Source of the DNA: Reclinomonas americana ATCC 50394
Taxonomy: Eukaryota
Reading direction: 5' to 3'
NCBI GenBank assembly: GCA_048213135.1
Contig: PS015065.1
Span: forward strand, 20,863 to 77,554
Length of the DNA: 56,692 bases
Numbering within the stretch: the stretch's first letter is position 1; every line of letters begins with the position of its first letter. The notes below the pieces were generated by a model. That model worked only from the letters and a program-made list of their open reading frames with translations, ran no database searches and was not told where the DNA came from. The translations under genes and the position numbers were made by a program. Positions 1,960-55,300 of the stretch are shown here, one piece after another.

Positions 1960-4900
1960 CTCAAACAGGCGCGCGAACTCGCTCTGGATACCCGAACGCC
2001 GACTCTCGTTGGCCTGCGCACACAAATTCACGTGAGTCATCACCAATAGCCAAGAAAAAGTACGCTGAAGACCACCGCACCACTCCATCCAAAAAGGCCT
2101 CGGCAATCGAGAAATCAACTTGCAATTGCAACGCGTAGGTGAGCGCACGCTGCGTGATGTTGCGCAGTCCCTGGTGTGTCACACGCAGGTTCGGCAGCAG
2201 TGCATTCACGAGGGTGTTGAGACCGAGTGGTGGAGTGCCCTGTGCATTTTTTGGATAAGCGCATCGCACAAAGAATTCACCCTTGAAGTGCAAGCACTCA
2301 CCAGCTGTTGCGCGTACTTGGCCATGGCCTTGACATGCGCCGTCGATAGGCATCGCACGTCCATGGCCGGATCGGAAATCAGCGGCACCAGACGCGGAAT
2401 CAACGTGTCCTGGCATAGCGCCGCCAGCTCGGCCGCGTGAGGCAAATCCTGCACGCACGTCCACCCTTCCGTAAACAACACATGGCATTCTCGCACACTC
2501 CCCGAAAACTCACCTGCGACACGCGGAATGTCGCATGCTTGACCGTCTCCTTGGTGGTCTGTGCGCCAATCAGTCGCAGGCGCTCTGAGCGGCTGCCGAG
2601 CAGATTCAGCAGCAGTGCCGACAAGTCGGCCGACCACGAGCTGTCCTCAAAGATGAACTCGGGGTTGCGGCTGACAATAAAGAACTTGCCGAGCAGGATG
2701 CCGGCCAGCAGTAGCGTGTCCTCGTCGGACGACGACGCCACGTCGAACACGTACTCACTGCAGCGATTCGGTTGCATGAGTACATGGTGAATGGCAGCGC
2801 AGCACGACACGGGTGCCCACACTCACCGCAGAGAGCGACGCAATCGCGGTCCGCCGAGGATATGCACCGCCGCACCAAACACGCCCAGCACGTAGCCACG
2901 CACATCGACCTTGCCGTAATCAAACATGGAGGTGCACGTGTCGACCAGCTCCTCCAGCACCGGTGGCGAGGCCGACGTACCAATCTCCGACAGCGCAATC
3001 TCGGTGGCCTCCAGGATCGACTGCACAGGCAGGGATGAGAGGCCACAAAAAAATCACTGTACTGCTGTGGTCAACGAACCCGCACGATCGGCTGCGACTC
3101 GGTCGACTCCTTCAGCTTGCGAGTCAAGTTGTTCAGCAGCGAGTCCGCCTTGACACTCTCCGGCAGGCTCTCGCACATTTGCCGAATGGCACCCACAGCA
3201 CGATCGCGCACCACGGCCGCCTCTGCAATAAAAAAATCGATAATTAGCATAATAACCTGTCACTTCCCCGTCAAACAGAGCCTTTCCCCACTCACCCTGC
3301 AAGCCCTTCATGAATGTCGTCTGCAACTGCGGCACCGAGCGCTTGATCTCATCGCTCGCGCGCGCAATCAGCTCGGAAATGGTCAACAGCACGTGCGCCT
3401 TCGGTTCCGGCGCAAAGTCCTTGCTGAACACGAACATCAGGCGACTCGTGATGGCAAACGCGCACTTGCGCAGCGCACTCTCGCCGCACGCCTGGTAACA
3501 GGCACACAAACGAGAGCGTAAGAATGCACGCAAACTCTATTCAACCAGCCAGCAGAGGTGTGCGTACCTCCAGCAACTCGCCAATGCCGTACACAGCATG
3601 CTCGCGAACTCGCGATGTGGAACCGTGCACCATGGCATGCAAGTAGATGGGGTACAGCGGCTCGAGACCAGTCTGCAACTTGAGACCCTCCAGCACGCGC
3701 GACGATTCCTGACCCCTGATGCTTGCAGTGTGAGTGGCTTGTCGCACAGCACACACGAAAATAGTCAAGTAACGCACTGGAAGCACAGGGCGTGAATCTC
3801 CTCCTGGATGATCTCAATGTGCTGTGCAAGCTCGTCCTTCTCGACCGTTGCACCCAGCGCATTGAGAACGGCCAGCGCCGCTTCGTTTACCTGCAGCGAC
3901 GATGTGCAGTGAGCAACACGCCGAAGCATACATCAGCGCGTCCACACAGAGACGCAACTCTCTCGTCGGGATCGTTGAACGCGCGCAGAGTGACCACCAA
4001 AATGATTGGCAAGTGTGGTCTGTACATGTCCAAGTTGCCCGCAGCGGTCCACTCGAGCATGCGCACAATGGCAATGCGCCGGCCAGACTGCACCACGGGT
4101 GTCAAATGACATTGCCCTGCATGCATACTGCAAACAAAGCACACATACCTTGTTCTGCTGCAACTCCTCGTTCGCCTCCTCCACCAAGTCACCCACGCAC
4201 TCCGTGTTCAACGAACACACGATGCGTCGGCCGCACGACATAATAACATCGACGTCGGCCCCTGGTCTGTCGACCGAGCTCGCCACCGTGGTCACCATGG
4301 CCGGCAAGATGGTCGGCATGTGCGAGACCAGCGCGTTGGGTGCGCTTTCGGCCACCACAGCCAGCGTTTGCATCTTGGAGGCGTCGAGCACCTCCTTGTC
4401 CAGCAAACGCGGCAGCAGGTAGGCCAGCACGGCAGCGGCGCGAGAGCGCAGCAGCTGCTGCAGTCCGCGGCGGGCGGTATCGACGCCATTGATGACGTCC
4501 GAGATCAGCGTCGGCAACACCTCCTCCATGATGCGCACACCAATGGCCTTGTTCAGCGCCGTGAACAGCTCGGCCGCGGCCTTTTGAATCTGTGAAATGT
4601 GTGAGAACGCTGGTTCTCGCCACTGCACAACGAGGACTCGTCACGAAACGTCGCTGTTCTCGGAGCAAATCGAATCGCGCAGCACCGGCACCACATCCTT
4701 CAGCAGTGAAGGTACGTGGCGCTTGGCGTTGCGGACGAGCTCAGTGAGACCGAGGCAAGCGCCCTGGCGAGTGGGAATGTCGCGGTCGCGTGAGGCGCGC
4801 ACCAGAGCCGGCACGAGGTCGGGAATAATGTGCTCCGGCATCTTGACCACCAGCTCGGCAATCGTTCGACCGGCCATGTGTGTGCGTTCCTGCCAGCACA

Positions 4901-7900
4901 TGACATACATGTTGGTGAGACACCAGCCACAGGCGGGCAACGCAGACGGACACACAAACCTCCGACGCCGTGGCAATGCCGGCCACCATGGGCATGCCGT
5001 CGGGACCGTACACGACACGAATGCCAGAGGAGCCATCGTCGGGCTCCGCCGGCTCATCGTCCGAATCGCCGTCCTCGTCACTGCCCTCGCCGTCTTCGTC
5101 TTTCGGTGCCTTCTCGACATGCACACACATACAGTCGTGAGAAACAACCCAATCGGTGGCATCCGCTGCACAAGCGAAGAGATAGCACACACCGGTGAAT
5201 CGACAAAGTTCGAGAGAAGAATGTCGGGTGACATTGAAAGCGAGGCCACGAGAAGCTGCGTGAGTTGCGGCAGGATCGCGCGGACCATGCGCGGCGTGTT
5301 GTCCACCAGCATGTGCCACACGTGATGGGCGGCCTGGGCCACCGGCGGCTGCACGTCCGCATGCAGCATGTACAGCGTGCTCAGCAGCATGTGCAGGCGC
5401 TCCTGGCCCATTTGCTGCGTCAGCGTGTCCATGTCGTTGCTCGAGCTGCGCGTGTTTGCCATCAGGTCGTTGATGTCCTCGAACTCCTTCGGCTCCTTGC
5501 TGCGGTGCAACACCTGGGCCAGCAGGTCGCCGAGCAGGGTGACTGACGCGACGCGGATCTTCCAGTTGTCCTCCAACAAGTTCTTCTCCAGACGCGGCAA
5601 AATGACCATGAACGACGACTGGCCGTGCGCATCGACAATGACTTGGCCAGCCTTGAGAGCGGTGGCGCGCACCGACTCTGCATGGTGGATGAGACACAGA
5701 TTCTGTGGACACACACAAATAGGAAGCATCGTCAAACCTTGTTCGTCGGAGAGACCGACCAGCACCTCGGGCAGCACGCGCGGCAAAAAGTCGAGGAACT
5801 CGTCCTTGAGCGCCAACGGCAGGTACGCCAGCACCTGCAAGTGCGCCTCGCGCACCGACGGCACTGGGTCGCGAGTGTTCTCCAAAATGTCGGGCAGCAG
5901 CTGCTCCAGACGAGCAAGGCCTGGCGACGGAGAAGAAATGTGAGCACTGCAGAATCGACGAGAGCATTCGTATACATGACAGCAACAAACCGATAGCCAC
6001 CGTGACCTCGCAGAAGCCCTGGGCGGCACCGGAGCGGTCCGAAGCGTTGGTGTGATCCTTTCGCAATTGCTCCAACAGCCAGTCGAGCAGTGACGGGAAC
6101 GAGGACTCGCCAAGTCCGTGCACCAACTCGCCGAGTGCTGCGAGAGCGCACAGCTATCACTATCCTGAAAGGAGACAACAGGAAAACAAAAAACATACCA
6201 CGCGCAGCAATAGCTCGCACATCGGGCACTGGATCCACCAGCGCCGCCTTCAGCGGCTCCACCACACTCTCCAGATACGGCACCATATCTTGCGTCTGCG
6301 TAATCAGTGTGCTCATGCTGCCCACCACCTGCACGCACATAGTGCGTTAGTGGATCGTATTGTACGTGCCACTCTGCGCATGACACGCACCTGCGCAGCC
6401 TTGCGTTTCACTTCCGTGCTGCGATCCTTCAGCGCGCGAATGAGTAGCGGCATGATGAGCGCCAGCGACGGCGCATCAATCGTGTGGATGAAGCGAATTG
6501 AGAGCAGAATGTCGAGGGCGCGCTTGGTATGATCGGCTGCGGAAACACGCCATAGTCAGTTGCTTGTCGCGATCATGCCACGCACCACCACCACAATAAT
6601 CGACAACGTACCTGGGTTACTGACGGCGTCGATCAAGGCAGGCACGTGCGCCTGAATCTCCGGATTGCCGACCACACCACCGACACGCCGCAGCGCCTCC
6701 TTGGCGTACGAAGCGACTTCTGGGTGCGAGTCCTTGGAGGCTGTGGCCAGTGGCGGCACCAACGTGGGCAGGCAAGCAGACAGCTGCTTGGGAGCGCAGT
6801 AGGCCATGGCACCCATCATCTCAATGGCACCCTGTATTCCGCCGACATTGGGTGAGTGGCTTGGGTAGTGAAGGAAACGAAGATGGCTGGAGTGAGAGAC
6901 AACGCAACGCATTTCGAGCGCCACGACTTGTCCTCGACGCCGCGCAGCAGAATCGGCACAATCATCTTCACGCCGTGCACTGACAGATTGCTCATGAGAA
7001 CGCGCACAGTGTCCTCGCTGGCCTCGCGAATCGCATTCGACGGGTCGCCACGCGCCGCCAAAATGTGCGGCAACAGCGGCATGATGAACGGCTCAAACAG
7101 CTGCTTGAGCACGCGGGACAGGCACTCGACGGCCATCAGGGCACCCTCCTTGGCCGCCAGCGTCTTTTCGCGCAAACTCTTCTCCAGGTACTGTGAGGGG
7201 GAGGCAATCATGGGGTGTGAGAGACGGGTGGTGGCAAATGTTGGGCGTCTTCTTGCCACTCACATCCAAAATTTCCATGTTCTTCAGCGACATGTAACCC
7301 ATGCCCTTGACCAGACCGGCCAGACCGAAAGCGGCACCACGGCGCGCGGGATATGAGTCTGTGTTGCGAGTTGGTGAGATTCGGTGGTGTGTGGGAGGGA
7401 ACAGGGCTGAGGGAGAAAGAAGGAGAAAGGGAAAGGGAGAGGGGGAGAAGGGGGAAGGAAAGGGGGAGGGAAAAGGGGGAAGGAACCGGGCCGGCGGGGG
7501 GGGGGGGGGGGTAGGGGTAGGAGGAGACGACGAAACGAAACGAACGACGACGACGACGACGACGACGACGAAGAAGTGCGTAGAACTAAACAAGNNNNNN
7601 NNNNNNNNNNNNNNNNNNNNNNNNNNNNNNNNNNNNNNNNNNNNNNNNNNNNNNNNNNNNNNNNNNNNNNNNNNNNNNNNNNNNNNNNNNNNNNNNNNNN
7701 NNNNNNNNNNNNNNNNNNNNNNNNNNNNNNNNNNNNNNNNNNNNNNNNNNNNNNNNNNNNNNNNNNNNNNNNNNNNNNNNNNNNNNNNNNNNNNNNNNNN
7801 NNNNNNNNNNNNNNNNNNNNNNNNNNNNNNNNNNNNNNNNNNNNNNNNNNNNNNNNNNNNNNNNNNNNNNNNNNNNNNNNNNNNNNNNNNNNNNNNNNNN

Positions 7901-10900
7901 NNNNNNNNNNNNNNNNNNNNNNNNNNNNNNNNNNNNNNNNNNNNNNNNNNNNNNNNNNNNNNNNNNNNNNNNNNNNNNNNNNNNNNNNNNNNNNNNNNNN
8001 NNNNNNNNNNNNNNNNNNNNNNNNNNNNNNNNNNNNNNNNNNNNNNNNNNNNNNNNNNNNNNNNNNNNNNNNNNNNNNNNNNNNNNNNNNNNNNNNNNNN
8101 NNNNNNNNNNNNNNNNNNNNNNNNNNNNNNNNNNNNNNNNNNNNNNNNNNNNNNNNNNNNNNNNNNNNNNNNNNNNNNNNNNNNNNNNNNNNNNNNNNNN
8201 NNNNNNNNNNNNNNNNNNNNNNNNNNNNNNNNNNNNNNNNNNNNNNNNNNNNNNNNNNNNNNNNNNNNNNNNNNNNNNNNNNNNNNNNNNNNNNNNNNNN
8301 NNNNNNNNNNNNNNNNNNNNNNNNNNNNNNNNNNNNNNNNNNNNNNNNNNNNNNNNNNNNNNNNNNNNNNNNNGGGTGGGAGAGCGTGAGAGGAGAGGAG
8401 AGAGAGAGAGAGAGGAGGAGGAGGAGGAGGAGGAGGAGGAGGAGGAGGACGCGGAGGGGGGGGGGGGTTGGAAAAGTGAGACTGACCAAAAAAGACACCG
8501 AGCACATGCGCAGCGAAAGATGCTGATAACAATGGACAAATAATGCAAGACTTCGCATCCACGTAGAGGAGTAACAAGGACACAAGCAGACGCACTCACA
8601 CCTCGCAACCTGGACTCAACTCTCTCCCTCCCCTTCCCCTCTTCTCCCTCTCTATCTCCCACCCAACGCACCACCCGACGACAGCGTGGCAAACAAGCGC
8701 TTCAGAACTTGCGCCGCTCGCGATGACACGGCAGACGCCGTCATCAGCGGCGACATGCACAGCGCCACTTGCGTCTGCACGTCCTGACTGGGCGTGCCCA
8801 ACGCATCGAGCAGGCGGCTGAAGATGGCCCACACCTACAACAAGTGAAATAAGTGAGCTCATTGCAGCCGCCCTTCGCTTTCCTTCCATCGCACCTTGTC
8901 ACTGTCGCCGTCCAAGTGAATGGCCAGACTGCCGAGGAATACCACCACGCTGCTGACTGCAAAATCGGAGCCGCGGTCCGGACCATCCAGGAACATTTCA
9001 AAGAGCGGCAGCAGCAACGCCACATTCTGTCGGCCGTGCTCCTTGATGTGCTTTTGACCGGCCTGCACGTACGAATCACGTGAGTCGACGCATCGAGTAT
9101 GTTGATAACGGCACAGGCCACACGAACCTCCACCATGCGCTCGCGCACCAACGCGCTCTTGTCAAAGAGCGCCTTGGAGATGAAGAACGTGAAGAGCACC
9201 GGCAGGTTGGCCGGCGTCAAGGCGCGCGGCAGTTCGGCCAACACAGAGGCAATGCCGACACGCGCATGCTCCTCCGTGTCCTGCGCGAACTGCGCCAACG
9301 AGCCTTCCATGATTGGCAGCTGGTGGGGGAATACAACTGGGTGAGTTTGCGTGAGCACTCAGTGAATGGCAGGACGGACACGCAAGACCTTTTCCGTGTA
9401 CAGGGCAAACAGGCGGGAGAGGGTGGCGCCGGCTGTCTCTGGGTACTCGCCGAGAGCACGCAAAAACGCTTGACCGACAAGGGTGCGGATCGAGTCCTCG
9501 CGCGTGCCCATCAAAATGTCGAGCAGCACCGAGCAGTAGTCGGTGGCTAATGCTGGGCGTGAGAGACCAACAACAACACACGCACGACGACAAGGAGGAG
9601 CGACGGACGCAACTCAGCGGCTTGCCATACTGTCGCCACACTTGCTGGGCCGCATCGGCCGCATGAACGTCACGCTCGCCGCACGCCAGCCACAAGCGAA
9701 TGTGGAAGAGGTGCAGCGACGATGGCACCTTTTGCTCCACGCCGGTCAAGTCGTCCTCGTTGACCTCGTCGGCACGACCAAACACTCGCAGACCCACAGC
9801 CGCAGTGGTGCGCACATGCTGTTGGGCACTGAGGAGGCTGGAGAGGAACGGCTCCAGTGCGTTGAGCGTCGGTGCCAGGTTCTGCGCCAGTGCGAGCAGG
9901 CACCAGCGAGCGCGTGGATGCAGCATGGGAATACCGGCAGACAGCACGTGGAAGAGTGTCTTGCAAGCGGCCTTGGGGAACGGGAAGTTCTCCCACTCCA
10001 CATGCAACGCAAGGGCGTCGAGCACGGCCTGGTGCTCCGGCACACCCCAGTGGCCTACAAATTCAAACAAGGGTGTTCAGAAAGCAGCAGTGAGGCGTTC
10101 GGAAGCGGCAAATGCGCGCACCGAGCAAAATAGTCTCCAGCAGCGGGTACGTGATAGTGAATGGAATGTACTCCATCTGGTTGAGGGCAGTCATCTTCTC
10201 GAACACAACGGCCAACATCTCCGGCTCCGAGTCCTGCAGCACAAGGCCAAGGATGGTGAGGACAGTGCGAAGGGAATAGAAGAATGAGGGAGGGAACTCA
10301 CCGACTCGCATCGCGTGTCGTCGAGCTTGTCGCCGACCAAGCTGCATATCCACGTGGTGAGCAGTTAGTCGCGTAAGACACATGTGACACAAAGACGTAC
10401 CGAATGAGCAAGCGCACGACCAGTTCGAGGAACGGTGCCACCCATCCTTGCACCGACGCCAAATGCAACAACATGGCCGCCGCACGCTTGTGCAGGAACG
10501 GTGACGACAACTGGTGCACGGCCATGTCGACCAGCGTCGTCATGAACGGCTTGAGGATGCCGGGCACTGAGCGGACAATGAAGCCGAGTGCCTGCACATT
10601 CACACTGCAAGTGTGAAACAAAAAGTATTGCTGACAATCAGGATGCAACGAACACACCTCCAACACGGCGCCAGCGCGGTCGGCAGCAGCCAGAATCGGG
10701 CGACGGATCTCGGCCTCCTCGGCACGCACTTGCTCAATCAGCTTCTCCAGACGAGCTTCGGGAGTCTGTGTATATTCAATCAACACAATCAGCGCCATGT
10801 TCACCGCAACACGGCTGAAAAAGGCGCGCGAACGCAACATCTCCACGCTTGCGGGCCTGCTCGCGACGAATCTCGGCCTCCCACGCATCGTCCTGTAAAT

Positions 10901-13900
10901 GATACTTGGTTGAGCAGCGCATTCCTTTCTCTCCAGATGAGATCCTCGTCGCACGCAACTGCAGCCTTGCCCTTCTTGCCAGCCGCCGCCGGAGCACCCT
11001 TCTTGCCTCCCGCCGCGGCAGCCGCCGGCTTCTTCTTCTTGTCCTCTTCGTCGGCGACATCGCGAATCGACACTGTGAGGAAGAAAGTGAGTGCCTCAGC
11101 AAAAAGAACAGGCTGCCAGACGAGGTGAGAATCGCACCTTTGCGGTACATCTCGCCCACCGGTGTCAGCGCAATGGCCAATTCCGTGCTGGAGAGACGCG
11201 ACAAAACATCACGCTCGTTCTGGAACTTGTGCGCAAGGCGCGGGAACAGCTCCTTCAGCACCGCCGCACCACCAAGTTCACACAGCGAGCTGAGTGCCAG
11301 GAATGCCGCACGACGTGTGAAGCGAGCCGTGGAACCCAGCGCGTCGTCCGACACCAACAGGTTGACGGTGGTGTCCACGTGGCCGAGAACCAGCAGCAGG
11401 AGACGGGAGCCCTGCACAAATTACCAGAGATGGTGGTGAGACGACGCGAAAAAAAGGAAGGAGAAGAAGAGAAGACTCAAGTCACCTCGCGAGCGACGAG
11501 ACGCGACCAGAGAGTCTCGCCTGCGCGGTGAGCCTCGGTGGTCACGTGCGACGGATCGAAAGTCGGTGACAGGAACTCGGTGTGTGTGCACATAAGCAGG
11601 GCGCCCGGCAACATTGGGTGCGTGTGCAGAATGTCGGGTGACGGCAGCGGCATGGTGGCGAGCAGGAGCGCGCCGAGACGAGAAAAATTGCGATTGAGAG
11701 GTGCCACTCCAGATCCCGAACCTAAAACCACACCTCCATCAACAGAAAGCACATTGTGTGCGCACTTTTGTGACAACGACACTCACCACCAGCACCAGCG
11801 GCAGGTGCCGCCGCAGATGACGACGATCCCGACCCCGATGCACCACCAGCTGACTCGGCGGCCACCTGCAGTGGCGTCGTCAGCAGCCGGCGGCGGCACT
11901 CGTCGGCATGAGCGGCCACGGCAGGTGCCTCGGCGGCCACGAATTCAGCAATCGTCACTGTCAACTCAGCCGACACAAAAGCCGCCGTCTCGGTCTCACC
12001 CCTGGAATTCAAGTAGATGCCCAGCTGCTTGCACGCGGCCACGGCGGCACGAGGCACTGCCCACTGCATGTGCGTGGCCAGCTGCACCCATATCAACCAC
12101 AGGCTGCGTATAGATAAGACGAGGAGGGCGTCAGAAGGATGGGGTTTTTCGGGAGAACGTCAACGACATGATTGCAGACGTACTTTTTCCGTTGTGCGGC
12201 ACCGCGCACGAGCGGGAATGCGTATCGCACAAGACCGTCGAGGACGCGCACCAGCACCAAACCCGTGTTGACGTCGCACCGACCAGCCTGCTCCACACCG
12301 AGGCCGAGGAAACCGTTGCCGCCGCCCTTCTTCTTGCCAAACAAGGCCGGTCCCAGCGGTGAGGTCGACAGGTCTGCGTCGCCACCATTCAGCGAAAAAG
12401 GGCAGAAAAGTAAAGAATCATGGATGGCACCACCCAGAACTCACCCAGTCGCGACTCGCCAGGGTAGAGGAGACGCACAAGCACACCGAGTGCGTGGGCT
12501 GTCTGCGAAAACAGCACAGGTCGCTCTGCGTTGGTGTTGACAAAGGCCACCAGGGGCTCCGACAGCTGCGCAACGGCCTGTGGTGATATGGGAGAAATAA
12601 AGAGTGAGAAGGAGGATAGACAGACAAGGCGGCAAAGCTCACTTCCAGAAAGATAACTCACCGCCAGCCGAAACTCGGTGGAGAACTCACAACCACTCGC
12701 CACTGCCGTCGAGTACGAGGCAAACACCTCAGCCGACACACCGTCGACACGATTGAGCGTGCGCTTGTAGTTGTCGATCAGACGCGCCGGCGGGGCGGCC
12801 GACGACAGAGAAGTCCACTCGTGCAACGCTCGCGACGCAGCCCAGTGCACCATGGGGTTGTCTGCGGGGGTGATCGCCGGCGTGAACACAGGCAAGCACG
12901 GGGGCAAAGATAAACAAAAAAATGGCGCAACTCTCTTCCGCCAGATAGGTTGCAATGGCGGCGAGAACGGGCTCGCTGATTTGCGCACGATCGGCCGGCA
13001 GCAACGCAGACGATGTGAGGAGGAGAGAGCAGCGACCCAGGGTACCAATAACGGCGTCCTTGGCCACTGGCGTGGTCGCCTGGCCACCGCTCACACGGTC
13101 ACACAGGGCGGCAAGCGCAGGGGCGACGACGGCGGGGGAGTTGCAGTGGGCGAGGAGTTGTGCGATCGACACGGAGCCGTGCACGCGGTACACGGGGGCC
13201 TGTGGGAGGAAGGGGAAGGGAGAAGGGGTAAGGAGAGAGGGGGAAAGGGGGTGGGGGAGGGGGGCATCAGTGACTGACACCTCACAAGAAGGCTGTCCCT
13301 CAAATATCTCTCAACTCACTCCTCTCCTCTCGCTCCTGCAGCTTGAAGTTTCTCAAAGATTGGTAACCCTCGCCCTCCCTCATTCTCTTGCTACTGTCTC
13401 GCGATGATTCACCCATTTCACTCCTTTCTTTCAGTTTCTCGTGATTTGTACTCTTCGCCCTCTCACTACTGTCTTTCGATACTGCTCCTCGAACACCCTC
13501 ATCCCTCCCGCGTCACGCACTGGTCCGACTGTGCTCTCAAATCATCTCCTCACTCTCCCTCACTCTCCATTCTGTCGCTGCTTCTTCTCGACACCCTCTT
13601 CGCCCTCTGACCCTGCTCTCCCGTTTTCCTTAGACTCCTGCTTCTCCCCTCTTCACTGTCGCTTTCCCTCCCAAATCACGCACTGACCTCAATTTCCTCC
13701 TGAAACACTCCGCTCTCTCTCTCTCTCTCGCCGCCTCCCTCAACACCCTTCTCTCTCCCTCTCACCTCCATCGTCAGGAACGCCAACATCTGGCTATACA
13801 GCGAGTCACGCGCGGTCGAGCAGAACGGCGCCGTGTCGCACGTCAGGTGGGCCAGCAGCGCGGGAATGATTGGTGCCACCTTCTCGCCCGAGCGTTTGCA

Positions 13901-15200
13901 CGACTTGAGAATGTTGGGCACCAGTGTCTGCATCACGCGCGCCACGCATCAGTCACCGGGTCACCTGTGCGCCATGCGCTTCTACATAAAAAAAGAAACC
14001 TCTGCAAACTCCTGCGTCGTCAGCAGCGCCAGCATCGGTGCCAGCTGCCCGACATGATGCGGCTGCCAGTCATCCTGCGGCGCCGCGAGGATCTTGTTGA
14101 TAAACTCGATAAACACATTCTGCACGACCAATGGTGAGCCCCGATTCACTCACGGACAACTGCACCACACCGCACCTTGTACTCAGAGATCAAATCCACA
14201 AAACGCTTGCCTCGTCGCGCCAACGACAACACAACGCCCATGGCGCGCGTGAGTCGCACGCACGGTGGCGAGCTCGCAAACACGTCCATAAAGATCGGAA
14301 TCAGGTTCGGATGCTGCATGCACTCATGTAAGGACCGATATGCTTGCCTGCCTGCTCGTCCTTCTTCCTCCTCCTGCTTACCTCTGCCAACGCACGACGC
14401 AGCAGCTTGTCGGCCTTGCAGTCCTTCGCCGAGCCTCCCATCTCCGCAATCACTGCACTTGTCCACAGCGCCAGCTCGCCCAACCGTGCACGATCCACAC
14501 AATGCGACATCATCATACACAAGAAGCGAATCATCTGCACGCCCGCCACGCGACACCATTGCACGGATGCGGGCAAAGTCAAGTTGGAAGCCACGATCGG
14601 CGTCGACGCAAACAGGCTGTGCATGAGCGCGGGAATGCATTCGGGCGAGCGCGCCAGGAACCACTCCACGAGATGATCAATGTGCTTTTGTGTGTGGCGA
14701 CCTGGGATGTGCAGGCGAGAGTACTCCAGCAGCTCCGCGATGCCTTCCACACTCAGCAACTCTTCCTCTGTGACAACGGGGGAGAAGAGACAAGGGAGGG
14801 ACATGTGCATCAGCACCAACAACAACACACAAGCGTGCCACTGGGAAGCGAGCAAAGAGCAGAGCAGGCGCGCGCGTGCATCCGTGTGCATGCATCACAC
14901 ATGCACAGAGGGAGAGAGAGTGCGTGTACAAGAGAGCGTGCAAGTGGGCAGCCATTTCCGGCCCCCCGTTTTTCTCATCTGCAGCACGGCGTAACTGTTC
15001 TCGTAGAGTGCGTCGATGACACGCGTCGCCTCGGCACCCGAGTCGCCGCAGAGTGCGTGGACATTCATTGAAGTTGATTGAAATCAGGGTCACCGCCACC
15101 CGCGTCGCTGAAGTGGAATTTGCCAAACGGGGTAACCCGACCCGGATATTGTACTGCGCCACAGTCGTGGCTTCCGGGGCACTATCAGCCGTGGCATTCC
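1960..15200 (-). CDS. GCN1: GCN1 translational activator (HEAT-repeat GCN2 activator), multi-exon; start approximate, 3' end runs into a gap
   Basis: Spliced exons give hallmark segments: [112 protein letters not shown]. Confidence 0.93.
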
Positions 15201-15365: not shown

Positions 15366-17483
<2,118 letters not shown>

Positions 17484-18295: not shown

Positions 18296-18335
<40 letters not shown>

Positions 18336-20902
18336 AATAGAGAGACGAAAGAGAAAGAAAGAGAGCAGGAGAAAGAGAGAGACGAAAGAGAAAGAAAGAG
18401 AGCAGGAGAAAGAGAGAAACACTTTTGATTGAAACTCACACTCTCACGAACTCTCTTTCTCTCGCATACACACACACACACTCTCTCACACACACATACA
18501 CACACAGCTGTCTCTGCTCATTCTTTCTGGGGTGGGAGATGCATTGTATCACTATTTTGTTGTGATTGTCACATTTGAGCATCTCAGTCAGTGGCTCATT
18601 TGTTGTGATTGTGGGGAATGCAGTGTTCTTGCGCGTGGCGGATGCACCGTGGCGATTGCGCTTGCGCATGGCAGCTTCTTGGTCGACGGTCTGCGCCCGT
18701 ATGAGGTGAGGTTTGCGTGGCTTGATTTGGTCTCTCTCTCCTCTTGCTGTATCAGTGTGGCCGTGACGGATCCTTTGTTCTCATTGCTCTCACTCCGTTG
18801 TCGACCATTCGTTCTTCTTCTTCTCCTTTCCCTCTTGCCCTCCTCCCCGTGTTATCTACGCTGTCTCCATAACACGCACATTGACTGAGCCTTTGTTCTA
18901 ATTCCTTGGTCTTCGTTACTTCGTCTCCTTCATCTTCTCCCGCTCCCCTTGCTCAACGCTGTCTCCATCTTTGTCAGATTCGACCACGACTGACCATGCA
19001 TTGTCACTCCTTCGTCTTCGTTACTTAGTCTTCCTTTCTATCTCCTCTCGCTGTGTTGCCTCTTACCCTCCCCTGGGTCAACACTCTCTTCATCTTGTCA
19101 CACCCACACTCTGACTGATCCTTTGTTCTCACTCCTCGCACTCATTTGTCTTCCTTCTCCTGCTGTCTTGTCTGCCCTTGCCCTCTTCCTCAGTCGCCTT
19201 CTCTTCTTCTCCTTTGTCTTCCTTTACTATTGCATTTACGTGTTCTTCTCCCCTCGCTGGTTTGCCTCTTGCGCACCTTCCACTGTCATCCACGCTGTCT
19301 CAATCTTTGTCACATTCGCACTCTCATTGATCCCCTGCTCACTCGTTTGTCTTCCATTTCTTCTGCACCTTCATCTTCTCCTTCCCCTCTTCCTCCCTCT
19401 TGTCCCCCCCTCACCCTGCCCCTTCTCTCACTCCTTCCCCTCTTGCTCTCCTTCCCCTCACCCCTCTCCTTCCCCTCCCCTCCCCCACCCTCCCAGATCG
19501 AAGAATGGCTCGAGTTCGCCAACACCGAGTTCAGCCGCGAGGAGTCGCTGATGATGTCGGCCATTCGCTTCAACCACCAGCTGCAGTTCCGCACCTTTGT
19601 GGGCGGCGATGGCTCGCGTCTCACGCTGTTCGATTTGCTGGTGCTGCAAGTGCTGCGCAGTTGCGTCTTTTTCTTGTCTATGATCGGTGTTCACAACATC
19701 TCACCCGTCACACAAAACGCAGACAACCGCCTCACCATGGGGCTGGTGCGCCGCTTCGGCAACAGCCTGCCGCACTTTGCGCGCTGGTTCGAATCGATCG
19801 ACGCCATGCCGCTGGCCGTCGAGAGTTTCACCAACCTCGTGAAGATGTTGCGTTCTTATCCTCCACTCCCGCTTGTGCCTCGCCTCACCTCTCCTCTTCC
19901 GACAGCCTGAAGGGCCAGGGTGTGGTGCTGAAAAAGTCCGCGGACACCACCACGACGGCCGTGTCGGCTGCGCGTGCCGAGGAGGCTGGCGACGTGTCGC
20001 TGCCGAACGCTGAGATTGGCAAGGTTGTCACGCGTTTCCCCCCAGAGGCCTCTGGCTACATGCACATTGGGCACGCCAAGGCCGCGCTCATCAACAACTA
20101 CTTTGCCAAGAAGTACAAGGGACGCATGATTCTCCGCTTCGACGACACCAATCCCAGCAAGGAGAAGGTGAGGGAGACTATATGTGCGTGTGTGTGTGCT
20201 AAGAGAAAAATGTGAAATGCTCACAACTCTACACGAACAGGGCGAATTCGAGGAGGCCATTCGCGAGGATCTCGGCCGCCTGGAAATCATTCCCGATCAC
20301 ATTTCGCACACCAGCGATCACTTTGAGTTGATTCTTGGTCTGTGCGAGCGTCTGCTGCAGGAGGGCAAGGCCTACGTGGATGCGACGCCGGTGGCCGAGG
20401 TGAGAGGGAGGGAATGGGGTGGTAGAAGATTATGATGTCATTGCTGCCGTGGGATTGGTGTCGATCGTGCCCAGGTTTTCTGAAGTGCGCGCAAGTGTGA
20501 CTAACATGCTCTATCTCTTCCGCAGATGCGTGCCCAGCGCGACGCCGGTATCGAGAACGCCTACCGCTCGCAGCCGGTCGCCGAGAATCTGCGCCTGTGG
20601 ACCGAGATGCAAAAGGCCTCGGAGGAGGTGTGCAATACTGTGCGCGCTTGTGCATCTCGCCTCTCTGCAAGTCACTAACGCACTCCTTCTCGCACACAGG
20701 GTCTCAAGTGCTGCGTGCGCATGAAGATCTCGATGACGGTGCCGAACAAGGCGCTGCGTGATCCTGTGATGTACCGCTGCAACTTGACGCCGCACATGCA
20801 CACGGGCGAGCGCTACAAGGTGTACCCGACCTACGATTTTGCCTGCCCCATTGTCGACTCGTACGAGGGTGTGACGCACGCTCTGCGCACGAGGTGAGCA
20901 GC

Positions 20903-20937
<35 letters not shown>

Positions 20938-23967: not shown

Positions 23968-25165
23968 GTGTGTATGTGTGTTTCTCCCTCACACGCACTC
24001 ACTTACACACACACGCACACATGCACTACTACATTCACTGCATTCATTCGCTCATTCACTCCTCTTGTCTTTTCTCTCTCTCTCTCTCTCTCTCACTCCC
24101 ACTCACACTCACACTTACGATCCCACAGACATTCATCATTGGTGTTGCTGGCGGCACTGCGAGTGGCAAGACGACTGTGTGTCGCAAGGTGCGTCTCTCC
24201 CACCCTCCCACCCTTCCTCTCTCTCTCCTCCACTCAAGAGAGTGCACATACACAGATCATTCAAAAGCTGGCAAACCGACGAGTGGTGATGATCACACTC
24301 GACAACTTCTACAAGCCGCTTTCGGCCGAGGAGCACGAGGCGGCAGTGAATCAGGCGTACAACTTTGATCATCCCGATGGTGAGGGGCGCAGTCTCCTTT
24401 CTCGCCAGCTCGTCTTCCTCTTCTTCTCACCCCCGTGCGCCAGCCTTTGACTGGGAGCTCATCCGGGAGACGCTGTTGACTCTCAAGTCCGGCAAGCCCG
24501 TGTCGTATCCCGAGTATGACTTTGTCACGCACGGCCACAAGAGCGCCATGCATGAGATTCCCGCGTGCGATGTAATCCTCTTCGAAGTCGGGTTGATTGC
24601 CTCTCTTTCGCCTGCTGCGTGTTCTCCGTTTGTGACTTGTGGCGTGTGGCGCGTGCAGGGTATCATGGCGCTGTATGACGAGCAGGTGCGCAACATGATG
24701 GACATGCAGATTTTTGTGGACACGGACCCTGATTTGCGACTGTCGCGAAGAGGTGCGTGTGTACGTATATGCCTTCTCTATCGCTTCCGGTGCCTAAAGT
24801 CGTTGGTACAGTGCGGCGTGACATTTCGGAGCGCGGGCGCGACTTGGAGCAGGTGCTGACGCAGTATGAGAAGACCGTGAAGCCCATGTACGAGACCTAC
24901 GTCGAGCCAGTTGCGTGCTGACCGGCGATCCCACAAGCGCATGGAATTACTAATGCGTGCGTCTGTGTGTGCAGACAAAACGGTACGCCGACATTATCAT
25001 TCCTCGCGGTGGCGACAATGTCAGTTGCGTGACCCCACGATGACCGCAGTTCGCTCTTGGCTGTCGACTGACTCCCTTGCAGTTGCCATCGACTTGATCG
25101 TCAAGCACATCACGCTGCTCTTGCAAGAGTTCGAGCAGGGCAGTCTACGTCGGATGCGTTACTGA
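23685..25165 (+). CDS. Uridine-cytidine kinase, multi-exon
   Basis: FIIGVAGGTASGKTT, DNFYK, YNFDHPDAFD, YDFVTH, ILFEGI, IFVDTD, RDISERGRD, YVEPTKRYADIIIPRGGDN. Confidence 0.93.
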
Positions 25166-25415: not shown

Positions 25416-26581
25416 ATGCCTCGCGAGATCGTGGAAAGTGAATTCGACGAGTACGTCCGTCGCAATCGACAAGTTGCGTCACACACACTCATCCCGCACA
25501 GCATCTTGTGAGTGCACCACTCACACACACACACAGGGCAAAGGCATTCTTGTGGTGGAGTGGTTTGCTGCTTGGCAGTTGCGTCATCCCCCCCTCTCTT
25601 CACTCCCTGCTGCGTCTCACACACCCTCCAACACACACAGTGAACCGTGTCGGAAGATTGAGAGCTCACTGGTGAGCGAAAACACGCGCCTCTCTCTGTT
25701 GTCGCACACACACAGTCACTCACTCCTCCACAGGATCAACTGAGCCGCGACTTTACCGATGTCACCATTGTCAAGGTGTGTGATCACAGACGCAGCAAGA
25801 GTGATGACACTGACTGATCATTCATTGCACTCTCTCAGATCGACGTGGATCGCTTCCACGACATCTCCGCGCGAAATGGTGTCTCCGCAGTGCCTTGGTG
25901 TGTGTGTTATATGTGGTCTTATGTGCGAGTACAACGATCTGTGTCTGAGTTGTCGCGCGCTCTTCCAGCTTCTTCATCTACCGTCGCGGGCAGAAGGTGC
26001 ATCTGATTCGCGGAGCCAAGGTACGCTGTCGTCGGTTGCTCTATGTCTCTTTCCTGTCGTTGTCTGTTGGCGGGAACTCCGTGTTGGCGAGAGAGATAGT
26101 GCTCGATCTTGCCCTTCTTCGATCTCGCAGACCTTCCAGGTGGTTCTGCGTCTCCTCTTCTCGCTCCTCATCCACCTTGTGGTGCAGCTCGCTTGTCGTT
26201 CATTTTGTCTGCTGTCAACCTCCCTACTCGTCCAGTTTGCGCTGCTGCTCTCCTTCTCTTTTCCGCCCTTCTGTCAATCTCCGAGACCTTCCAGTTGGTT
26301 CTGCGCCTCCTTTCTGTCAACCTTTTCTTTCTCGCTGTTCTTCCGCCTTCGTTGTGTTGCGGCACTCCTCTTGCCATCCACCTTGCCTTTTTGCTGTTGT
26401 TCTCACTTCGTGCTCTCTCTCTCTCTCTCTCTCTCNNNNNNNNNNNNNNNNNNNNNNNNNNNNNNNNNNNNNNNNNNNNNNNNNNNNNNNNNNNNNNNNN
26501 NNNNNNNNNNNNNNNNNNNNNNNNNNNNNNNNNNNNNNNNNNNNNNNNNNNNNNNNNNNNNNNNNNCGTCTCTCTCTCTCT

Positions 26582-34425: not shown

Positions 34426-34619
34426 CAATTATCAATCGCATCTTGTGGAGAAACGTGAACTGTATGGCGTGCAGCTGGAGGTCCGATTGCCGAGTTGTGG
34501 ATTGAGAATCCAATTTTCAAGCGCCTTTCTACAAACCCACTTTGTTGATCTTGACAACCTCACACGCTCGTGCACCCCCGACGGGCACACCAGCGCGCTC
34601 GGCTGAGAGCGTGAACATC

Positions 34620-40979: not shown

Positions 40980-43198
40980 ATGTCGCGCCAAAGCTGGTCG
41001 AGTGTGCTTCTCGTTGCACTCGTGGTGTTGCTGCTGGTCAGCAGAGGGGCGAACGCAGATCTGGAGTCGCACGCGTGTCAGGAAATTGCGGGATCGAGAA
41101 ACAATTCACTTCCGGTTGGTTGCGCTGTGCGCATGCCGCCGTGTTTTGAATTCTGTCTTGTGTGAGTCGCCTCATTCTCTCTCTCTCTCTCTGGTTGTGA
41201 CAGCTGATCTACATTGATGAGGGTGGTGGTGGTGTTGGGCTGGGAGGTTTGCGTGCATGCGAAGACGAATGCGCAGATTGTGTGTGTGAGAGAGCTCCTC
41301 ACACCTTCTGAGACGCAGGCATGGCAATTACCAACTTGGTCTGGCTGGGCATCAACATACTCATGGCCATCTTTTCGGTCTGCCTTCGTTGTCCCTGTCG
41401 CGATCCTCTGTGGTGCTGATGCGCAAGTGCACGCAGGTCACGCAATTGCATCAACGTGCCGTCACGCTGAAGAAGCGCTCCGGTGCGTGTGTCTCGTGCT
41501 GCTCATTGTTGCTTGCTTGCCTCCTCCTCCTCCTCTCTCTTTCTCTCTCTCTCTCTTTCTCTCTCTCTCNNNNNNNNNNNNNNNNNNNNNNNNNNNNNNN
41601 NNNNNNNNNNNNNNNNNNNNNNNNNNNNNNNNNNNNNNNNNNNNNNNNNNNNNNNNNNNNNNNNNNNNNNNNNNNNNNNNNNNNNNNNNNNNNNNNNNNN
41701 NNNNNNNNNNNNNNNNNNNNNNNNNNNNNNNNNNNNNNNNNNNNNNNNNNNNNNNNNNNNNNNNNNNNNNNNNNNNNNNNNNNNNNNNNNNNNNNNNNNN
41801 NNNNNNNNNNNNNNNNNNNNNNNNNNNNNNNNNNNNNNNNNNNNNNNNNNNNNNNNNNNNNNNNNNNNNNNNNNNNNNNNNNNNNNNNNNNNNNNNNNNN
41901 NNNNNNNNNNNNNNNNNNNNNNNNNNNNNNNNNNNNNNNNNNNNNNNNNNNNNNNNNNNNNNNNNNNNNNNNNNNNNNNNNNNNNNNNNNNNNNNNNNNN
42001 NNNNNNNNNNNNNNNNNNNNNNNNNNNNNNNNNNNNNNNNNNNNNNNNNNNNNNNCTCGTTCACTCACCCCCTCCTTCCCCCCATGACGTGGCCAAGTCG
42101 GCAGTCGGATGGATGGATGGCGCCAAGTCCGAGGTCCTGGCCTGCATCTTTGTGGTGGAGCGCCTGTGTTTCTTCCTGCCTGGGTACATTCTCATTACCC
42201 TCATGCTGCTCTCGACACTGCCGCCGGCACCACCACCGAATGTCATGGCGAAGATGTTGCGCGGGGTTTGCAGCGTGCAGATCTTGAGGAGGATGACTGA
42301 CGATTCACTCTGCGCGCAGGGCCAACATGATGACATGGCTGTGGTGTGTCAATGCGACGTGTGCGCCGTGCTTGCGACAAATACTGGTGTCGAGTCTGCG
42401 ACAGTTTGACAGGGAGCACCGAGACGCCGGTTTCCGCTTGCAGGATATTGACTTTGGGTCGGAGAGGTGCGTGGCGATCGCGTGGGAGAGATGGGAGAGG
42501 GGAAGTGTCTGATCGAAACGAGGCGTGAGTGCCTGCAGATTCATGGCAATGGAGAGTGGCCAGCGACGGCGGTTGCAGTTGCCTGTGGGCAATCTCACGG
42601 CGTTGTCGGCGTGCTTGCAAGAACTGACGCTTGGCGACTCGCCTGAGGCGAGGGCTGCGGACATGGAGACGCTGGAGGAGCTGGATATTACAACGTTGAG
42701 CACGGTGCTGCTGTACTTTTACTATCGGAGGGATGCGCAAGATGCGATGTCGGCGCAGGCATTGGTGGCGGATCCGCTGATCGTTACGCGGAGGGGGAGC
42801 GATGGTGGTCTTCCTAAAGCTTGCTGTCTCTCTCTCTCTCTCTCTCTCGCTGCTTGTCTTCTCACTCGCCCTGTTTTTTCTCGCGCGCCACTTATCCAGA
42901 TCCGCTGACTCACCACGCACCACCCGCCATGCAGAGACAAGCCATTGACGCCATACGTGTCTCGCGCAACGTGGTTCGCCATGCTACAGCGCTCTCCGTG
43001 GAGCACAATCAGTTGATTCAGTTCATCCGCAACTCGCACACGCTGGTGAACCTGGCCTTCACTCTGCATCTGTGCGAATTGGCGTGCAAGAATCGATGGA
43101 TGGCATGTCTGCACACGGCAGAGCTTGCGGTGCAGGAGACTGACGAGGATCAGGAGGAGGCGGTAGTGAGGCGGAAGGGGTGTGCGGAATGGTGCTGA
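40980..43198 (+). CDS. Signal-peptide + transmembrane protein with C-terminal HEPN-like domain (paralog B); gap 41570-42055
   Basis: MSRQSWSSVLLVALVVLLLVSRGANA; LVWLGINILMAIF; LACIFVVERLCFFLPGYILITLMLL; ATCAPCLRQIL, LDITTLSTVLL, IRVSRNVVRH (42965-42982). Confidence 0.65.
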
Positions 43199-52316: not shown

Positions 52317-55300
52317 GATTCCAGTCTGTAATAGGGAAAGGGGGTTAAGAGGGAAGGGGGTTTGGAGGAGAAAGGTAGGGGGCAAAGGGAAAGGGGAAGG
52401 GGGTTTGGAGGGGAAAAGGGAAGGGGGCAAAGGGACAGAAGGTGAGAGAGGGCGTAAAGAGGATCAAGGCGAGAGGGAGGAAACGAAGATAACGGGGAAA
52501 GTGAAGGGCAACGGGGATTGAGGGGGCCAGGGAGAAGAGGGCACTTGGGTCAAAGAGGAAAGAAAGGGGCAGTGGTGATACACGCAGAAGGGCAAGGGAC
52601 AATGGAGAAAAAGGGGTCAGGATGGGGCAAAGTGGGTTGGCGGGGAAAGGGAGGACGAGAAACTACAGAACAATAACATGGCGATGGCAGGAGTAATGGT
52701 GCAACAGAGAGGAGAGGGCGAGAGAAAAGAACTGATGCTGAACAACACTGAAAGCAACGCTTTTCTTCAAAGACGCACCAGTTCCATTGCGGTAATCGGC
52801 ATGGCTGCACAAATCACGCACGGTAAGAGACACACACACTCAACATGAGCTTGTTCACGAGTCCGCACCTGATGATCAAACTACTGCGGAACTTGCGCAG
52901 GTCAATGACATGCATCAGCTGATCGCGTGAGTTCGTCAAGCAGCGGTTGCCGTCTGCACAACCAGTGTCAGTGTCTACCTCTTCGTGCTCTGCTTCCCCC
53001 TCTCCCTCTCCCACATACCTGGGAACATGGCGAGTCCGGTGATGCGCGACGTGTGAATATCCGACACCTCCGCCGTGAGGTCCGACGATCGCACATCCCA
53101 CACACGCAGCTTGCCGTCAAAATGACCGGAGATGAAGGTCGACGAGTCCAGCGGTGAAATCAGATCGTGCACCGTCGACAAGCACGCCCGTGTCTGTGCA
53201 CGGAGAAAATGTGAGACTGCACATGAAACATACATGCACTATTGCGCTAATACCTTGACCAGCGTGCCGCGATTGGTGTCCCAGATCTTCAGGGTGCGAT
53301 CGCTCGAGCCGGTGACCAGCAGAGAGCTGTCCGACGAAAAATCACCCGCCAGCACCTTGTTGGTGTGGCCCGTCAGCGTGTGCTTGACGCGCGACGTGGC
53401 CAGTGTCCACACACGCGCCGCCATGTCGTTGCAGGTGCCAAAGGCAATGTCGCCACGCGCCGAAATACCCACACGCATCACGCCCATTGTGCTGCCGTGC
53501 AGTGTCTTGTCCGGATTGACTGTGCGCGGAGAGCGAAGAGTCAGTGCCAAGAGCACGGATGATTGCACGCGCTCACGCTGACGCACATGATGCGCCGTCC
53601 CACAGCTTCACTGTCTTGTCCGACGAGCCGGTGATCAGCAGGCCGCCAGACAGGCTGAACGCACAGCTGTTCACCTCGCCGTTGTGCGCGTTCTGCTCAA
53701 TGGCATCCACAAGTAAATATATGTGTAAGACACGACAATCGATTTTCACCACTGACGCAACAATGCGCAATCGCACGCGGGTCGGTGGAGCAATGGCCGA
53801 CGACTTGGCCAGCGTGGGTGGCGGACCGGAACCGGAGGCGCCATCCTCGTCCTCCTCGCCACCCACGGGTGCCCCGGTGGGACTCCGCATCGACTCGCGC
53901 AGCGCTCGTTCCATGCGCAGTGCGTCGCTGAGTTGGCCGACCTCGTTCATCATGCGCGCCTGCTCCTCCTTGGCGGCCAGCAATTGTGTCACGATTTGCA
54001 CGTTCTCTTGCTTGAGGCGCGACACTTCGTCCTCCATTAGTCGTCGGTGTTCCTTGAAGGAGAGAGAGATTGGTGAGGGGGAAGTAAGGAGGAGAGGGGT
54101 GGTGGTGGAACATACCACCAACGACTCGCGCTCTGTCAGCAGGGCGGCGTTGTCGGCTTTCAGGGCGGCCATTTCGGCGTCGCGGGCTTGGTAGGCGGCG
54201 CGGGCTTGGAAGGCCTCGGCTTCCATGGAGGCGTAGCTGAGATTTGGGAGGAAGGGGGATGAGGGGAGAATGAGAAGGCAGGGAAGGGAGGGGGAAGTAG
54301 AGGGATGCGAAAGACAAAGTGAACGCCAGCAAAGAGTGGAGGCAAATCGTGTGCGGAAGAAGGAATGTGTACGACGGACGAGCAAAGAGAGAGCTGGAAG
54401 CACAACCGAGAGAGAGAACACAGACGCTCTTGAGTACGAGCTGATGAAGAAGTGCAGAAAAATTAAAGGGCACGCCAAGTGTAAACGAGACATGGCCACA
54501 GGGCTGACAAGAGTGAGGAATCGAGAATGTACACAACGCGCGAGTGAAAGAAGACCGAAGGTGGACACCTTCCAGGTTTTTTCCACGCAGGGAACATGCC
54601 GACTCACCGCGTCTCCATTTGTGCCAGTCGCTGCTCCATCGACTTGACCTCCTCCGTCGCCTACAGCGGGGGATTTTCAGTCATCGTCGCCGTCACTCCC
54701 TTCAGCATGCACACAGACCTTGATGTGCTTCTCGTTGAGCAGCACCTCCTTGCGGAAGTGCGCCGTCAGCTCGTCCTTTACTTGCCGCAATTCGTTCTCC
54801 AGCTCGGCCACACGTGCTTGTGTGGCGGGAGTGTCCACCATTCTGACAATCCGACAAAGGAAGAGTGCAAATGAGAAATGATGCGATCATGATGCTCTTG
54901 CGTAGAAGGACACGGTCACCCTCACGCTCACTCCATGTCTCTCTTCTTCGAGTTCACGAGAGATATGAAAAGCACGCCTCCTCACTCGATCCAACTTGTT
55001 CTCCTACAGTGCATTCTCTCTCTCTCTCTCTCNNNNNNNNNNNNNNNNNNNNNNNNNNNNNNNNNNNNNNNNNNNNNNNNNNNNNNNNNNNNNNNNNNNN
55101 NNNNNNNNNNNNNNNNNNNNNNNNNNNNNNNNNNNNNNNNNNNNNNNNNNNNNNNNNNNNNNNNNNNNNNNNNNNNNNNNNNNNNNNNNNNNNNNNNNNN
55201 NNNNNNNNNNNNNNNNNNNNNNNNNNNNNNNNNNNNNNNNNNNNNNNNNNNNNNNNNNNNNNNNNNNNNNNNNNNNNNNNNNNNNNNNNNNNNNNNNNNN

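Follow-up and report, generated by a model that had tools for sequence, protein, structure and literature searches.

A GTTGCGT class of splice donors in Reclinomonas americana and its possible recognition in a one-base-shifted U1 register

In a 56,692-base stretch of contig PS015065.1 of Reclinomonas americana ATCC 50394 (the whole stretch analysed, hereafter the window), introns repeatedly begin with the heptamer GTTGCGT, in a setting that departs from that of the other 5' splice sites (donors) around them. To judge from the sequence, the GTTGCG(T) sites are very probably genuine donors that form a discrete class, H/GUUGCGU, where H stands for any base other than G and the slash marks the exon-intron boundary. 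The fuller proposition, that these real donors are read by U1 small nuclear RNA (snRNA) in a register shifted by one base, is one that we hold at about an even chance.

Results

GTTGCG sites and their sequence context

The window has a G+C content of about 54% and belongs to a gapped draft contig, with 13 runs of N. A preliminary description of it had listed 18 GTTGCG donors, and direct inspection of the sequence located every one of these hexamers at its coordinate and on its strand. The description had also remarked that the sites lack the usual +5 G and are never preceded by an exonic G; both observations hold, as C occupies +5 in 18/18 claimed sites and the -1 base is A in 11, T in 6, C in 1 and G in none. 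The motif extends beyond the hexamer, with GTTGCGT found at 16/18 claimed sites and GTTGCGC at 2/18.

The bare hexamer GTTGCG was not enriched in the window (56 copies against 45.6 +/- 6.2 in shuffled sequence, 56 being reached in 7/100 shuffles), and HGTTGCGT was (18 copies against 8.3 +/- 3.1, with 18 reached in 0/100 shuffles). GGTTGCG occurs six times and is never followed by T, and among the 38 unclaimed GTTGCG copies T stands at +7 in only 2 and G at -1 in 6. The window holds 18 GTTGCGT heptamers, 16 of which are claimed donors. The two unclaimed copies (27574 and 27579, + strand) form a tandem, GTTGC-GTTGCGTC, spanning 27574-27585 within the predicted intron 27528-27592, between a branch-like CACTCAC and the acceptor. 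GTTGCGT was absent from the predicted exons of the window and from the strand antisense to its predicted gene models.

Homology and coding evidence for the donors

Open frames alone cannot place introns in this window, because GC-rich sequence carries long open frames in many frames. Junctions were located with our own protein-to-DNA spliced aligner, which demanded only GT/GC..AG, used no donor weight matrix and was given 6-7 homologues per gene. A gene finder using GCN1 codon usage was run without any donor model (donor-blind), with a donor weight matrix trained on 32 canonical donors only, and with that same matrix plus a one-base offset. At least half of the homologues backed seven of the claimed donors, listed below with the last exon base before the slash and lengths in nucleotides (nt).

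24910..24974 (+): 65-nt intron, donor A/GTTGCGTG, uridine kinase gene; 6/6 homologues.
25024..25082 (+): 59-nt intron, donor A/GTTGCGTG, uridine kinase gene; 6/6 homologues.
49915..49986 (+): 72-nt intron, donor T/GTTGCGTG, calcineurin-A-like (PP2B) phosphatase gene; 7/7 homologues.
6832..6908 (-): 77-nt intron, donor C/GTTGCGTT, GCN1; 7/7 homologues and the donor-blind gene finder.
9547..9613 (-): 67-nt intron, donor A/GTTGCGTC, GCN1; 6/7 homologues and the donor-blind gene finder.
3891..3958 (-): 68-nt intron, donor A/GTTGCGTC, GCN1; 4/7 homologues and the donor-blind gene finder.
19660..19722 (+): 63-nt intron, donor A/GTTGCGTC, N-terminal part of the glutamyl-tRNA synthetase gene; 3/6 homologues in a weakly conserved region, with clear coding potential (19.9 against -1.7 for the next option).

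Homologue backing was weaker for three further donors.

19847..19905 (+): 59-nt intron, donor T/GTTGCGTT, glutamyl-tRNA synthetase gene; 2/6 homologues, coding potential 26.8 against 13.6, picked in all three gene-finder runs.
10766..10838 (-): 73-nt intron, donor T/GTTGCGTT, GCN1; 2/7 homologues, an in-frame stop on read-through, predicted by the canonical-plus-shifted model.
12862..12931 (-): 70-nt intron, donor A/GTTGCGCC, N-terminal part of GCN1; 1/7 homologues (the closest, P0001, only), picked in all three gene-finder runs.

The remaining sites are given here with the evidence obtained for each; coding potential backs 10959 and 26770 and gives moderate support to 29277 and 53761.

10893..10959 (-): 67-nt intron, donor A/GTTGCGTG, GCN1; coding potential and the canonical-plus-shifted model, the aligner having instead joined the acceptor (10892) to a GC donor at 10995, which lies 36 nt upstream.
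26770..26831 (+): 62-nt intron, donor A/GTTGCGTG, in a gene model; coding potential 27.6 against 15.8, stops in every read-through frame, picked by the blind and shifted models.
53696..53761 (-): 66-nt intron (or 69 nt, with 53692 as acceptor), donor T/GTTGCGTC, coiled-coil plus WD40 gene; blind model, the shifted model having picked an in-frame rival donor, G/GTGAAA at 53749, itself without a +5 G.
29219..29277 (-): candidate 59-nt intron, donor A/GTTGCGTC; CTCAT then CAG at 59 nt, in no gene-finder run.
25473..25536 (+): candidate 64-nt intron, donor A/GTTGCGTC; CTCAC then CAG at 64 nt, weak coding support, predicted by no gene-finder run.
25578..25640 (+): candidate 63-nt intron, donor A/GTTGCGTC; typical anatomy, weak coding support, predicted by no gene-finder run.
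42256..42319 (+): candidate 64-nt intron, donor T/GTTGCGCG; CTGAC then CAG at 64 nt, weak coding support, predicted by no gene-finder run.
44576..44582 (+): candidate donor T/GTTGCGTG; good coding score in the upstream frame (13.2), and no acceptor was identifiable in the GA repeat downstream (44590-44711), which abuts an N gap at 44712, so that this intron cannot be closed.

The alignments were gapless across the kinase and phosphatase junctions. A boundary scan that imposed no dinucleotide rule and scored every boundary within 12 nt by homology found that homology fixes the intron length, and that the claimed pair is by far the top GT..AG at six sites, the scores of the claimed and the next GT..AG being 116 and 96 at 24910, 105 and 23 at 25024, 137 and 123 at 49915, 154 and 125 at 6908, 50 and 38 at 9613, and 43 and 29 at 3958. 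At 19660 the scores were 24 and 21, and homology was too weak to decide.

The donor-blind gene finder also arrived at the motif. GTTGCG was its second commonest donor hexamer, opening 10 of 189 predicted introns (a count over both strands, antisense shadows included), and 9/18 claimed sites were recovered, although its catalogue is noisy, being exact on just 23 of 39 verified introns. Finally, a coding-independent test of intron anatomy, requiring CTNAY and then YAG at 52-85 nt, was passed by 14/18 claimed sites, among them 25473, 25578, 29277 and 42256, in comparison to 3/38 other GTTGCG (Fisher p = 2.7e-7) and 8.3% of all GT.

Comparison with the other verified donors

For a comparison of donor composition we assembled a verified set of junctions that had a GT donor, spanned 40 nt or more and were backed by at least half of the homologues. 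Junctions with fewer than two homologues were outside the tally from the start, and the 36-nt candidate 25100 (3/6), the junctions 13999 and 5204 (both 3/7) and all rows with 2/7 or 2/6 were left out. The set comprises 40 donors and 39 full introns, the donor at 8671 facing an N gap and being counted as a donor only.

GTTGCGT accounts for 7/40 of these homology-verified donors. Among the other 33, G stands at -1 in 30, G at +5 in 32 and T at +6 in 21; +3 is G in 21, T in 7, A in 4 and C in 1; +4 shows an unusual pyrimidine preference (C 15, T 10, A 7, G 1); and -2 is A in 21, G in 5, T in 5 and C in 2. With the columns of these donors treated as independent, GTTGCG is expected with a probability of about 1e-5 per donor. 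Since 7/40 were seen, the independent-position expectation, which the preliminary description had named as the result that would count against it, is rejected, and the GTTGCGT class is not the tail of the canonical distribution.

The -1 position departs in the same manner. G precedes 0/7 verified class donors and 30/32 canonical donors (Fisher p = 2.3e-6), and with all claimed sites counted the difference in composition, also anticipated in the preliminary description, is 0/18 against 30/32 (Fisher p = 1e-11). The missing -1 G is not an effect of codon bias: at the 14 supported sites of known phase, the codon-position expectation was 5.35 G at -1 and none was seen (P = 1.1e-3), and 2.05 A were expected and 9 seen (P = 1.9e-5). 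Canonical donors are known for a compensation between -1 G and +5 G, in which, as here, the exon -1 base depends on intron positions. That compensation predicts more -1 G where +5 G is lacking, whereas the class shows the reverse, with no -1 G beside its +5 C.

The predicted intron catalogue holds 12-13 class introns among about 116, a figure that is not independent evidence, as the shifted matrix was part of the model. The donors had been described as a major splicing mode; a share of 11-18% of introns stands for this one 57-kb window, and is not a genome-wide share.

The only donor among the other 33 that lacks +5 G is closely related in build to the class.

4590..4649 (-): sister 60-nt intron, donor C/GTTTCGTG, GCN1; 7/7 homologues.

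This donor consists of GT, T and TCGT after a non-G at -1, and resembles G/GTTCGT slid by one base; given its existence, the class may be H/GTT+NCGT and not GTTGCG alone. Two predicted donors, A/GTTACGCC at 14995 (-) and C/GTTACGCG at 42783 (+), are built alike and come from the shifted-matrix gene model only, without homology support. The uridine kinase intron 24587-24658 (+), backed by 6/6 homologues, has the donor A/GTCGGGTT, which carries a non-G at -1 but keeps the +5 G and is not of the shifted build.

Judged by features beyond their 5' ends, the class introns are ordinary short U2-type GT-AG introns. GT..AG boundaries, a restored frame and colinearity with homologues were found well at seven sites and weakly at three. 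Class introns are 59-77 nt long, where the remaining short predicted introns have a median of 67, and their acceptors are CAG or TAG. A branch motif [CT]T[ACG]A[CT] (CTCAC-type), 11-21 nt away from the 3' end, is present in 7/7 of them and in 26/32 other verified introns.

Register of the exon and intron bases

The description of the class as a G/GTGCG donor slid by one base is borne out by the gene finder: a weight matrix built from canonical donors alone finds the sites at a +1 offset. With no donor model 23/39 verified introns were recovered, with the canonical matrix 27/39, and with the canonical matrix plus the one-base offset 35/39. For the class introns, the canonical matrix recovered 0/7 and the same matrix with the offset 6/7; the latter predicts 12/18 claimed sites.

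The exon side agrees with this displacement. Over the 18 sites, the log-likelihood of exon positions -3 to -1 was -72.6 for a shifted register, -116.3 for the same register as canonical donors, which is what a bulged U predicts for the exon side, and -77.0 for background. The class -1 base (A 61%, T 33%, C 6%) resembles the canonical -2 base (A 62%, T 16%, G 16%, C 6%), and T at +7 in 16/18 class sites mirrors T at +6 in 21/33 canonical-type donors. The unshifted register is clearly rejected, and of the descriptions compared a reading shifted by one base has the best support, with a modest edge over no exon pairing at all. Of the suggestion that the register is shifted or bulged, the first half describes the data well, and the second, which leaves the exon side unshifted, is disfavoured. 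Provided that the donors are real, a shifted register is somewhat likelier than its rivals to be the explanation.

Proposed pairing with U1

In the mechanism that we propose, the class would be the local consensus G/GUGCGU read one base out of register. On pairing with U1, the intron G(+1) would fill the place of the exonic -1 G, U(+2) would be mismatched where +1 normally lies, UGCGU (+3 to +7) would fill the usual +2 to +6 places, and the last exon base would fill the usual -2 place with its preference for A. Cleavage would stay before the G of the sole GU, presumably fixed later by U6 and Prp8. U1 would be the reader of the class, and U6 would tolerate the extra base.

Several observations weigh against this reading. 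On the exon side, the shifted fit exceeds background by just 4.4 log units over 18 sites; a shift predicts about 2.8 G at -1, given G at the canonical -2 in 5/32, and none is seen; and T at the class -1 (33%) exceeds that at the canonical -2 (16%). On the intron side, GTT+GAGT, GTT+ACGT and the like would be expected to be common under a pure register effect, yet sister motifs are few, with one verified (GTTTCGT) and two predicted (GTTACGC) against 12-18 GTTGCG. Four of the 18 sites (25473, 25578, 42256 and 44576) have no independent support as donors. The pairing energies are also unfavourable when the standard U1 5' end is used (reference 5' end ACUUACCU, taken as PMC4856993 prints it): the class means were +0.73 kcal/mol with G+1 on C8 and +0.01 with G+1 on C9, the best class duplex reached -2.5 kcal/mol, and the shifted register was better in just 10/18, compared with a mean of -6.76 kcal/mol for the other 33 verified donors. 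The shifted-U1 mechanism of human GUUAAGU donors, to which the class had been likened, does not transfer as it stands, the class lying at about 0 kcal/mol in either register.

Because the shifted duplex is nearly unstable on the standard U1 5' end, we infer that the U1 5' end of this organism would be altered to pair with GCG, having a G as its fifth base and perhaps a C as its sixth. When 16 variants of U1 positions 5-6 were compared on the other 33 donors, GC was best (-9.69 kcal/mol) and GU second (-9.00), in comparison to -6.76 for the standard sequence. A hypothetical GC U1 would pair with the class at -7.73 kcal/mol shifted and -5.72 kcal/mol bulged, and the shifted register was better in 18/18 with the hypothetical G5C6 or G5U6 variants. 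This conclusion on U1 comes from donor composition and not from observation of a U1, and it is weak because Thecamonas and Mamiellales, according to the part of Roy and Bowser (bioRxiv 10.1101/2022.06.08.495308) that treats them, keep a standard U1 despite +4 C, a further point on the opposing side. That both registers are constitutive through one changed U1 (G5, possibly C6), with H/GUUGCGU as a normal class of at least 10% of introns and the heptamer potent enough to be purged from exons, is a tentative extension that we think rather less likely than its contrary.

Alternative explanations

Two alternatives keep the donors and change the way in which they are read. One U1 in the normal register could pair with the class if the intron U at +2 or +3 were bulged, with G+1 on C8 and GCGU as +3 to +6. 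Such +2/+3 registers have been validated for human sites, 54-68 human 5' sites in total being predicted to use them (PMC4856993 Table 3). On the intron side, GU-U-GCGU suits a bulge no less than a shift, and U6 would probably need such a bulge in any case, cleavage being before G+1. It is on the exon side that this account fails: -1 would still face C9, so that G should be favoured as it is in 30/32 canonical donors, but 0/18 carry it, the exon log-likelihood is -116.3 against -72.6 for the shift, and the duplex energies are inferior to the shifted ones in 18/18 sites with the best-fitting U1 variants and slightly so with standard U1. We regard a bulge as improbable. Less improbable, though still unlikely, is a dedicated variant U1, or another 5'-site reader, whose 5' end ...ACGCAAC would be colinear with GUUGCGU in the normal register and would act beside a main U1 for G/GUNNGU. 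A reader of this kind would suit the rigid motif, with +7 T in 16/18 (+3 to +6 being invariant by definition) and GTTGCGT almost absent elsewhere, as well as the paucity of sister motifs and the near-zero pairing with standard U1 in any register; moreover, lineage-specific U1 5' ends are reported to fit atypical donors in Entamoeba (AACAAAC) and Mastigamoeba (bioRxiv 10.1101/2022.06.08.495308), and variant U1s of human have been the topic of published papers. Nothing direct speaks for it, however: a gathering-threshold Rfam search of the 56,692-base window gave 0 matches to RNA genes, snRNA included. The canonical matrix slid by one base already explains the class, one altered U1 suffices, and the GTTTCGT donor at 4649 mismatches a GUUGCGU-specific RNA and matches a shifted G/GUUCGU.

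The other alternatives deny that these are U2-type donors of a common kind, or that they form a class. U12-type 5' sites follow the consensus RTATCCTT, and U12-type introns have a rigid, distinct branch site. A rigid 5' motif without exon pairing recalls such sites, and several copies in one window could recall an introner (an intron-generating mobile element), but the GTTGCGT 5' end is unlike the U12-type consensus, the branch motif equals that of other introns (7/7 against 26/32) and minor introns are far rarer than 11-18%. With the first 8 nt set aside, the mean local score was 7.59 within the class and 7.73 among other introns (maximum 12); class introns are in that part no more alike than any two introns, and hence are no family of mobile-element copies. 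We consider minor introns or introner copies barely credible. Nor is it at all probable, although a shade less remote, that there is no real class and that GTTGCG falls by chance beside mis-set boundaries or arises by artefact from G/GTGCGT through a spurious T or a G-to-T change. The lack of enrichment of the bare hexamer (56 against 45.6 +/- 6.2), the gapped draft with its 13 N runs and the 4/18 sites without independent support would be in keeping with this. Against it, homology leaves no freedom in frame or intron length at 7-10 sites, and the heptamer specificity (16/18), the anatomy (14/18 against 3/38) and the -1 statistics are far off chance, so that this explanation is already largely refuted. 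An assembly artefact was ruled out by the homology-confirmed frames, which a G-to-T error at +1 would break by moving the exon end one base, and by the rarity of parent donors without -1 G (2/32), which a spurious T would require.

Genes and other features of the window

The 277 stop-to-stop open reading frames (ORFs) of at least 100 amino acids in the window were scanned with Pfam, shorter ORFs lying outside the scan. The following genes were recognised in this way.

About 2,000-14,400 (-): GCN1 gene.
About 19,500-22,765 (+): class-I Glu/Gln-tRNA synthetase gene.
About 24,100-25,200 (+): uridine kinase gene.
48,222-52,036 (+): calcineurin-A-like (PP2B) phosphatase gene.
52,800-54,850 (-): coiled-coil plus WD40 gene.
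Also found in the scan: an NB-ARC/TPR gene.
Also found in the scan: a protein kinase gene.

A large gene at 31455-34697 (+) gave a weak Pfam match to AAA_16 (P-loop ATPase) together with TPR_10/TPR_12 repeats, and its codon score was 0.195 per codon in comparison to 0.37-0.47 for the housekeeping genes. In protein searches with the genes of the window, identity to the nearest homologues was only 37-53%, the highest being that of GCN1 (53%, to a transcript-like contig), with 42-50% for the tRNA synthetase and uridine kinase. Because the nearest homologues are this distant, the protein collections searched do not contain the organism, and its lineage seems to be unsampled in them. The named homologue matches were scattered across plants, animals, fungi and protists.

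The window also contains long GA and GT/CA dinucleotide runs, and GTGTGTG is the top GT-heptamer, with 328 copies. Three introns on the + strand are outsized, at 48313-49614 (1302 nt), 50434-51252 (819 nt) and 21830-22261 (432 nt), and could conceal exons, other genes or repeats; the remaining introns measure 56-130 nt.

Discussion

The human shifted register is rare and is treated as an atypical exception. The class described here, by comparison, makes up 7/40 of the verified donors in the window. Shifted and bulged registers between 5' splice sites and U1 are established for a few individual human sites dissected by experiment (PMC9311317 and PMC4856993, both of which cite Roca and Krainer (2009) for the shifted sites). 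As those papers present them, the human shifted sites share with our class a GU donor without +5 G, U1 base pairs moved by one position, a G+1 where the -1 G normally sits and cleavage that stays at the GU, and the human shifted test oligonucleotide also has A before GU (PMC4856993 Table 2). The intron cores differ, GCGU here against AAGU in human, as do the energies, the human shifted test site having -6.5 to -7.6 kcal/mol (PMC4856993 Table 2) and the class about 0 on standard U1. The bulged and asymmetric-loop registers (Roca 2012; Tan 2016, PMC4856993), in what these sources report of them, resemble the class in accommodating an extra nucleotide between GU and the conserved G and in making positions past +6 informative, which is +7 T in our case; the exon side, with 0/18 -1 G, contradicts a simple bulge.

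Among protists, a parallel is found in the Archamoebae, whose co-evolved U1 accompanies atypical donors that, like those of the window, have a pyrimidine at +4 in their consensus. For Mastigamoeba balamuthi, the section of Roy and Bowser (bioRxiv 10.1101/2022.06.08.495308) concerned with it gives a U1 with ACGUAC, that is, with G at position 5, alongside GUGCGC donors; this G5 is the same change as the one suggested here by donor fit. The Archamoebae, as portrayed there, have a single register and a single consensus, whereas the window adds a second class slid by one base. The canonical donors of the window, with their +4 pyrimidine and a +3 T in 7/33, match the pattern discussed in that section for Mastigamoeba, Thecamonas and Mamiellales.

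Literature string searches returned no description of GUUGCGU splice donors among the matches listed, which is weak evidence of novelty, and likewise no mention of a shifted register in protists or algae among the matches listed. What sets the class apart from the known registers is its frequency, its rigid GCGU core, the strict absence of -1 G and the poor pairing with standard U1.

For annotation, gene finders that rely on a single donor matrix miss the class introns: the canonical-only model lost 7/7 of the verified ones, and gene models were broken as a result. Single-matrix annotation of this genome would therefore be systematically wrong at about 1/7 of introns. For the organism itself, a one-base-shifted register gives a sharp prediction on the U1 5' end. 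If a second, dedicated U1 reads the class instead, the organism would possess two parallel recognition systems of the major type for 5' sites. If the shifted register is true, the class would offer a natural system for studying how U1 binding is uncoupled from the step at which U6 and Prp8 later select the bond to cleave, and if register-shifted donors hold a sizeable fixed share of the introns of a genome, this would show that the choice of register can evolve into a feature of the splicing code across a whole genome.

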